64,000 nt of DNA from Eledone cirrhosa (taxonomy: Eukaryota): positions 17,918,001 to 17,982,000 of the forward strand of contig OZ024766.1 in the NCBI GenBank assembly GCA_964016885.1, given 5' to 3'. The notes beneath the pieces were generated by a model. The model saw nothing but the letters and a program-made list of their open reading frames with translations, made no database searches and was not told the DNA's origin. Below, piece by piece: positions 61,307 to 62,061 of the stretch (within the stretch, counting starts at the first letter, position 1; every line of letters starts with the position of its first letter). A program made the position numbers and the translations under genes.

Positions 61307-62061
61307 CAACAACAACAATAACAATAATAATAATAATCATGACCGGTAACCTTGGTTATGATATAATATTCATTTATTTTAATTAATTAATCCTTATTTA
61401 ATAATAAAATAACATTTCTGACCCCGACCCCCCCGAAAATCAACAACAATAACATAATAATAATGTAAACGGTAAGTGTTTAATATATATATATATATAT
61501 ATATATGCATACATAATGTATATATCATGTATGTATATGTAACGATTAACGTGTGTATAACTACTCCCAGCCATACTCAACTTTGTTTCTCACAATCTCT
61601 TTTTCTCTCGACATCCATGTCTGTATTTACCAAATAATAATAATAATGAATTAAATAAAACAATTCTCTATTTTTATCTAACTAACCAAAATAATTTTCT
61701 TCCTTTTTTTCTCTTTCTTATTCTTTCTTACCTCCCCCACCCCACCTTATAATTTTATATCCATTCTGATGTTCCATATAAAAAAAAACGTTTAATATAA
61801 ATATTAAAACCTGATATAAAACCCGATATAACCAACACCATGTATTCCTTTAAAACCTGATATAACCAACACCATGTATTCCTTTAAAACCTGATATAAC
61901 CAACACAATGTATTCCTTTAAAACCTGATATAACAAAACCTCTCTCCTAAACCTGAAACCTAAACAAATAATAATTATGAACACATATATATATATATAT
62001 ATTCTATATATATATATATATATATATACATACACACTATATATACACGAACAAACATTAG

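Follow-up and report, generated by a model that had tools for sequence, protein, structure and literature searches.

A predicted distant branch point and a possible RNA fold at the loop-1 exon pair of a myosin heavy chain gene in Eledone cirrhosa

Exon 6b of a muscle myosin heavy chain gene in the coleoid Eledone cirrhosa is a real feature that falls within known kinds, namely the exons spliced from a distant branch and the exon pairs held apart by locks of the Dscam exon 17 type; here the branch is predicted from sequence and the lock from RNA folding. A first-pass annotation of this DNA had placed a branch point far upstream of exon 6b and had dismissed steric effects as a cause of the exclusivity of exons 6a and 6b. 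The branch prediction stands and the dismissal does not. The window is the whole stretch analysed, 64,000 nucleotides of contig OZ024766.1 (assembly GCA_964016885.1, positions 17,918,001 to 17,982,000 of the forward strand), and all coordinates count from its first letter.

The myosin gene and its exon pair

The gene lies on the + strand, and its coding exons in the window encode the N-terminal portion of a coleoid muscle myosin heavy chain. These exons are:

~29850, 33302, 42383, 43596, 49822, 52834, 60558, 62062 (+): coding exon starts of the myosin gene, from the spelled protein
49822..49933 (+): candidate exon 5a, first copy of the P-loop exon (MXE cluster-2), 112 nt, an open frame bordered by AG and GT
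52834..52945 (+): exon 5b, the 112-nt P-loop exon that a contig of run X2, with 52918-52943 as its loose end, joins to 6b
60558..60665 (+): exon 6a (MXE cluster-3, isoform A), 108 nt, phase 0/0, matching PDB 3i5f 213-248
62062..62154 (+): exon 6b, 93 nt, phase 0/0, in the spliced 5b-6b-7 contig of run X2

The peptide of exon 6a is identical to squid isoform A at 36 of 36 residues (PDB 3i5f, 213-248), and exon 6b repeats that segment with a loop 1 five residues shorter. The 6a/6b pair is MXE cluster-3, the scallop-type exon 6a/6b at loop 1, and we infer that exon 6b is isoform B. The best PDB match of exon 5a is 2os8, which we take to be scallop catch myosin; the acceptor of 5a is weak, and inclusion of 5a and 5b in one transcript would shift the frame, each being 112 nt long. 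Directly upstream of 5a (49000-49790) lie several tandem units of ~150-200 nt around CA and CT microsatellites. A repeat search gave microsatellite arms only. The exon at 43596-43624 (29 nt) ends in a phase incompatible with 5a or 5b, having one base extra, which is likely an assembly error.

Run X2 is read as RNA on its exon-peaked depth and spliced contig. One 147-nt X2 contig spans 62060-62155, and one of its loose ends matches the end of 5b, while the other continues in frame into what we take to be exon 7. Because this contig joins 5b-6b-7 at AG 62060-61, that AG is an acceptor in use; the first-pass annotation had named the absence of exon 6b from RNA-seq as one outcome that would sink its proposal, and the contig excludes it. 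The X2 contigs, which drop rare forms, list neither a 6a-6b joint nor a lariat. Contig depth in X2 is 13680 over 6a and 1858.5 over 6b, figures that cannot rank the exons and give no ratio; contigs also cover some of the 6a-6b intron, at depth 28-87, but leave the flanking introns uncovered, and holes between contigs prove nothing. X1, possibly the source of the window itself, and X2 are identical to the window over 61519-61854 and 61877-61974. At 60869-60870, outside the predicted helices described below, X2 differs from the window by an A>G change and a 6-nt insertion, likely an allele and possibly editing. Runs X11 and X19 gave short low-complexity matches only.

Because 6a and 6b (108 and 93 nt) are both in frame and their double inclusion is free of stops (5b-6a-6b reads through 104 codons), NMD or other decay is unable to enforce exclusivity, and the pair does not belong with those kept apart by frame shift or NMD. 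The donors of 6a and 6b both read GTAAGTAC, a U2-type consensus. With no U12-type site, the pair also falls outside the U2/U12-incompatible kind. The 6a-6b intron is 1.4 kb long.

The AG-free zone and predicted branch point of exon 6b

The sequence upstream of exon 6b contains the following elements:

61571..62059 (+): AG exclusion zone (AGEZ) of exon 6b, 489 nt, from the AG scan
61677..61686 (+): two overlapping CTAAC motifs, predicted to be unpaired, with A61681 and A61685 as putative branch adenines
61695..61740 (+): polypyrimidine tract, 43/46 pyrimidines by composition count
61817..61934 (+): AG-free 34-nt tandem repeat in the spacer, 3.5 copies
61985..62045 (+): TA microsatellite in the spacer
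62060..62061 (+): acceptor AG of 6b, in use and the first to occur below the branch motif, from the AG scan and the X2 contig

Exon 6b is probably defined by a distant branch and tract at 61677-61740, from which its AG would be reached by scanning. The AG-free zone claimed by the first-pass annotation is intact, with flanking AGs at 61569-70 and 62060-61 and zero inside. The CTAAC pair, which the annotation put at about 376 nt from 6b, starts ~110 nt into the zone and places A61681 at -381 and A61685 at -377 (last intron base = -1); one of these two adenines is likely the branch site. The annotation's pyrimidine tract of about 45 nt is likewise present, with five TCTT motifs in it, and the acceptor does lack a tract of its own, the last 18 nt before its AG holding 8 pyrimidines. 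The sequence thus supports the proposed layout of branch point, tract, AG-free spacer and AG, in which the first AG is the used acceptor. The acceptors of 5a, 5b, 6a and 6b have pyrimidine shares of 45-65%, with 6b at 45%; the four non-duplicated acceptors have AG-free zones of 25-64 nt that are 80-95% pyrimidine. In distant-branch exons AG is expected at its normal frequency again above the zone; the AG-free gaps next upstream of the 6b zone are 94, 259 and 140 nt, partly microsatellite.

The same sequence admits another reading, which we consider improbable: that 6b branches at a degenerate adenine near its AG, the zone being a G-poor, repeat-inflated strand and the CTAAC motifs and tract a product of chance or a decoy. 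The raw AG gap alone is weak evidence against this, because 13 of the 2197 AG-to-AG gaps on this strand of the window are as long, and G makes up just 3.9% of the zone, which lacks GG and GC as well (gaps of 589 and 490 nt). Tandem repeats further account for 179 of the 319 nt between the tract and the 6b AG, human zones of at least 100 nt are estimated to mark distant branches in only a fifth to a half of cases (PMC1431707), and deletions of distal branches had modest effects in minigenes (PMC5378181). Against this reading, when tandem repeats (58% of the window) are masked, the top three of the 2197 gaps end exactly at the MXE acceptors of 5b, 6b and 6a (488, 273 and 264 non-repeat nt), and the fourth-longest sits directly upstream of the 6a zone. 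There is also no proximal tract, the final 72 nt of the intron lack a YTNAY, and the branch and tract module is the strongest among 39 CTAAC: the pair (61678, 61682) ranks first for downstream pyrimidine content, at 0.95 against 0.85 for the next. By comparison, 5 of 130 CTRAY sites have at least 85% pyrimidine following. Within the zone none of 19 G is preceded by A, versus 25.6% in the flanking introns (binomial 0.004; 0.016 when only the 14 G below the branch are counted; repeat copies are not independent).

Exon 6b resembles the AGEZ exons (PMC1431707), in which a motif and tract lie in the 5' part of a long zone, the first AG is the acceptor and the exon is alternative. Its zone exceeds the 100-150 nt or more by which such exons are recognized, at 489 nt raw and 273 nt non-repeat, with motif and tract early in the zone and the first AG below the branch in use as acceptor. 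PTB exon 11 branches at -351 in a 380-nt zone and GABBR1 exon 23 at -275 (PMC1431707). Those exons are, however, human and were mapped or mutated, whereas 6b is a mollusc prediction with more than half of its spacer in tandem repeat.

Two further long zones precede exons of the duplicated pairs:

51329..52831 (+): AG-free zone before 5b, 1503 nt, the longest in the window, from the AG scan
60218..60555 (+): AG-free zone before 6a, with a weak proximal tract and CTAAC at 60468, from the AG scan

About 1.1 kb of the 5b zone consists of AG-free tandem repeats of 84 nt (11.7 copies) and 90 nt. This zone has a CTAAC at 51475, and its sequence makes a 5b branch possible either more than 1 kb away or within the last repeat unit. 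Elsewhere, 29466-29750 holds a second double branch-like motif, with two overlapping CTAAT, a strong tract and a spacer of ~210 nt to AG 29686-87. That AG lies upstream of the ordinary acceptor of the ATG exon (29749-50) and may be an alternative acceptor that uses a distant branch.

Predicted pairing of the 6a donor with sequence above the branch

When 60650-61760 is folded, three helices are predicted to link the 6a donor side to sequence immediately above the branch motif:

60661..60674 (+): 5' arm of helix H1, at the 6a donor, predicted to pair with 61622-61635 (donor 60666-74 with 61622-30)
60715..60723 (+): 5' arm of helix H2, predicted to pair with 61592-61600, probability 0.98 in all three fold windows
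60852..60860 (+): 5' arm of helix H3, predicted to pair with 61582-61590 (probability 0.85 in each of the three windows folded)
61582..61635 (+): stretch immediately above the branch motif that contains the predicted 3' arms of H3, H2 and H1

The claim of the first-pass annotation that steric occlusion cannot explain exclusivity holds for linear distance. The 6a donor (60666) lies 1015-1019 nt from the branch adenines, and a linear steric lock calls for a donor within ~50-60 nt of the branch (limits of <50 nt in PMC5740500 and 60 nt in PMC13762713). As a general exclusion the claim is unsafe, because the fold predicts pairing of the 6a donor side with sequence immediately above the branch; with H1 folded, the predicted path from donor to branch adenines is 52-56 steps. 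A structure-assisted lock is therefore possible.

The pair probability of H1 is 0.97, 0.47 and 0.50 in the three fold windows, about 0.5 once 6a is included, and the branch motif stays unpaired at 0.97-0.99. Cofolding the donor side with the branch-upstream sequence gains -20.5 kcal/mol versus -6.2 ± 2.5 in shuffles (0 of 300 reach it); with a shorter donor arm, the gain is matched by 1 of 200. In an unguided pair scan this pair of segments came 1st of 309 over 60000-62700 and 11th of 1922 over 56190-64000. Of 91 segment-shuffled introns, 1 reached its 34 base pairs and 2 its 8 paired donor bases. When real windows were tried as partners, 3 of 197 paired more strongly with the donor side and 2 of 146 others with the branch side, and every one of them falls in a single G-rich tract near 55450.

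Other measurements count against a lock or lie near chance. Of 2828 pairs whose first window lies in 52830-56190, at least 40 are stronger than -23, mostly with the same G-rich tract, and H2 and H3 alone would leave a donor-branch path of 131-135 nt, above the 50-60 nt steric limit. The best single helix (9 bp) is matched in 27 of 300 shuffles and the donor duplex in 18 of 213 real windows, both near chance. The whole region is not more stable than its shuffles (-153.8 versus -145.4 ± 6.5), and path shortening is generic, occurring in shuffles too (median ~50 steps). The evidence for H1-H3 comes from one coleoid sequence.

Two candidate pairings of the 6b tract were set aside as generic: one with the purine-rich beginning of 6a (probability 0.83-0.99, largely generic at 60/2000 shuffles) and one with the 5b-6a junction (219/1000 shuffles). 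No notable pairing was found between the 6b donor side and the branch-upstream element (-7.4) or between the 5a and 5b donor sides and their own downstream zones (-3.2 to -7.2).

A metagenome scan returned 132 stretches, 126 of them taken as loci, and the coleoid 6a peptide is absent from all 126. The very long AG-free zone is not shared by the 63 distinct non-coleoid copies that have at least 560 nt of upstream sequence; their longest AG-free run at the acceptor is 134 nt. In the equivalent intron, eight distinct two-copy non-coleoid loci (L003, L005, L010, L020, L041, L063, L069 and L078, with L006 and L099 left out as duplicates of L005 and L010) have a conserved 13-bp long-range stem, whose arms join +76 to +101 with -170 to -220 of the intervening intron (-494 in L005). 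Across these loci 99 of 104 cells are paired; one pair is changed on both sides (C-G in 4, U-A in 2, broken in 2) and three have wobble changes, covariation that is thin because the sequences are related. The stem energy reaches z -4.6 or lower in 5 of the 8 introns and in none of the 13 control introns taken from downstream (25 shuffles per intron), and five further two-piece contigs have 12 or 13 of the 13 stem pairs, one of them looking identical to L020. The stem has no sequence in common with the Eledone fold, which counts against the lock.

The same eight introns contain conserved TGCT/CGCT-rich blocks, a TACTCAC...TTTAAC block and, ahead of the second exon, CGGCT repeats, all of which are candidate protein-binding or branch elements. 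Their conserved GCTAATGC motif is ruled out as a distant branch by the AGs downstream of it. Two loci, L036:7151-9012 and L053 (minus strand), have four tandem copies of the cluster-3 exon and two P-loop exons; the descriptions of cluster-3 available here give it two exons only. Nested helices in these four-copy loci do not stand out clearly from shuffles (chain z +0.2 to -3.1 over 5 introns; overall z -0.95 for one intron). In L002, L062, L064, L066 and others like them, an extra short intron splits this myosin exon, and some of these loci carry a second, unsplit copy ~260-280 nt away.

A structure-assisted lock, its rivals and its relatives

Our tentative model joins distant-branch splicing of 6b to a fold-based block of 6a-6b joining. 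U2AF and U2 would assemble on 61677-61740, and 6b would branch at A61681 or A61685 and scan to AG 62060-61, a distance that would make it the slow and minor choice. H2 and H3 are predicted to keep the 6a donor close to the branch, with H1 masking the donor itself, so that 5b would be joined to 6b where H1 forms and to 6a where U1 takes the donor first. The spacer may have been lengthened by AG-free repeats, because only AG-free insertions would be tolerated there. The lock draws support from the precedent of Dscam exon 17, given in one sentence of PMC7969005.

We favour this structure-assisted lock over the proximal branch weighed above and over two further explanations, while regarding it as possible and not yet as probable. 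One of them accepts the distant branch and assigns exclusivity to proteins or timing: a PTB-type repressor would sit on the tract, or slow splicing would let 6a join exon 7 first, and the helices would be incidental. This seems to us unlikely, yet a serious contender, since the distant-branch exons analysed experimentally were all PTB-regulated (PMC1431707), introns with distal branches splice late (PMC5378181), the 6b tract has its five TCTT, 484 human MXE clusters are unexplained by steric, frame or U12 rules (PMC5740500), and Rdl exon 3 is governed by protein (PMC13762713). It would leave unexplained, however, why the branch-upstream sequence is the donor side's best local partner and why the equivalent non-coleoid intron has a conserved stem. 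The other, which we hold very unlikely, looks to a docking site close to exon 7 and so beyond the window, or to leaky splicing with removal of a misfolded double-inclusion protein. In docking-site clusters a single site pairs in turn with a selector at each exon. Insect Mhc reportedly has downstream docking sites (PMC6071210), the window ends at 64000, short of exon 7 and of most of the downstream intron, and a rare 6a-6b joint could escape contigs that drop rare forms; but the best candidate in the window, 62230-62345, tried as a competing partner downstream of 6b, pairs at chance both with the donor side (113/200 shuffles) and with the branch-upstream element (99/200).

Among known systems, the steric-lock pairs alpha-tropomyosin 2/3, alpha-actinin NM/SM and OGDH 4a/4b (PMC7969005) are like 6a/6b in being tandem duplicates in a muscle or energy gene, with a distant branch and long tract on the second exon, and OGDH has a cluster of branch adenines like the 6b pair. 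In those pairs, unlike 6a/6b with its linear 1015-1019 nt, the branch lies close to the upstream donor in a short intron. Closer in kind is Drosophila Dscam 17.1/17.2 (PMC7969005), where a distant branch and RNA structure are said to enforce a choice between two exons. The Dscam case was tested experimentally in insects, whereas the 6a/6b lock is predicted, and the likeness is to a one-sentence description.

The mollusc and annelid Mhc cluster-3 and the squid A and B isoforms (PMC3912159, PMC4757648) share the exon pair and the loop-1 position, with 6a corresponding to squid isoform A. Loop 1 is reported to influence ADP release (PMC3912159). Isoform A makes up 90-95% of the mRNA in D. pealeii arm and tentacle muscle, and squid muscles have a low fraction of isoform B (PMC4757648). 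The squid isoforms differ at cluster-3 and the C-terminus only, whereas the Eledone gene also has 5a; the available text of the same two papers gives no squid transcript variant with a second P-loop exon. The term 'branch point' is absent from PMC3912159, and no splicing mechanism is given in the available text of either paper. Within the open-licence literature we found no distant branch point in a cephalopod or other mollusc and no RNA lock in a mollusc myosin.

More speculatively, and rather against the balance of probability, the loop-1 exons of lophotrochozoan muscle myosin may be kept exclusive by long-range RNA locks within the intron, with an architecture that is shared and a sequence that is not. 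In coleoids an element above the 380-nt branch would pair with the 6a donor across 1 kb, one helix both blocking 6a-6b joining and setting the A:B ratio.

The 6a/6b pair belongs to the large class of MXEs left unexplained by frame, steric and U12 rules, and this locus supplies exact nucleotides for testing. If the predicted fold is true, a linear donor-to-branch cut-off, as used in the Rdl paper (PMC13762713) and in the first-pass annotation, would miss real cases.
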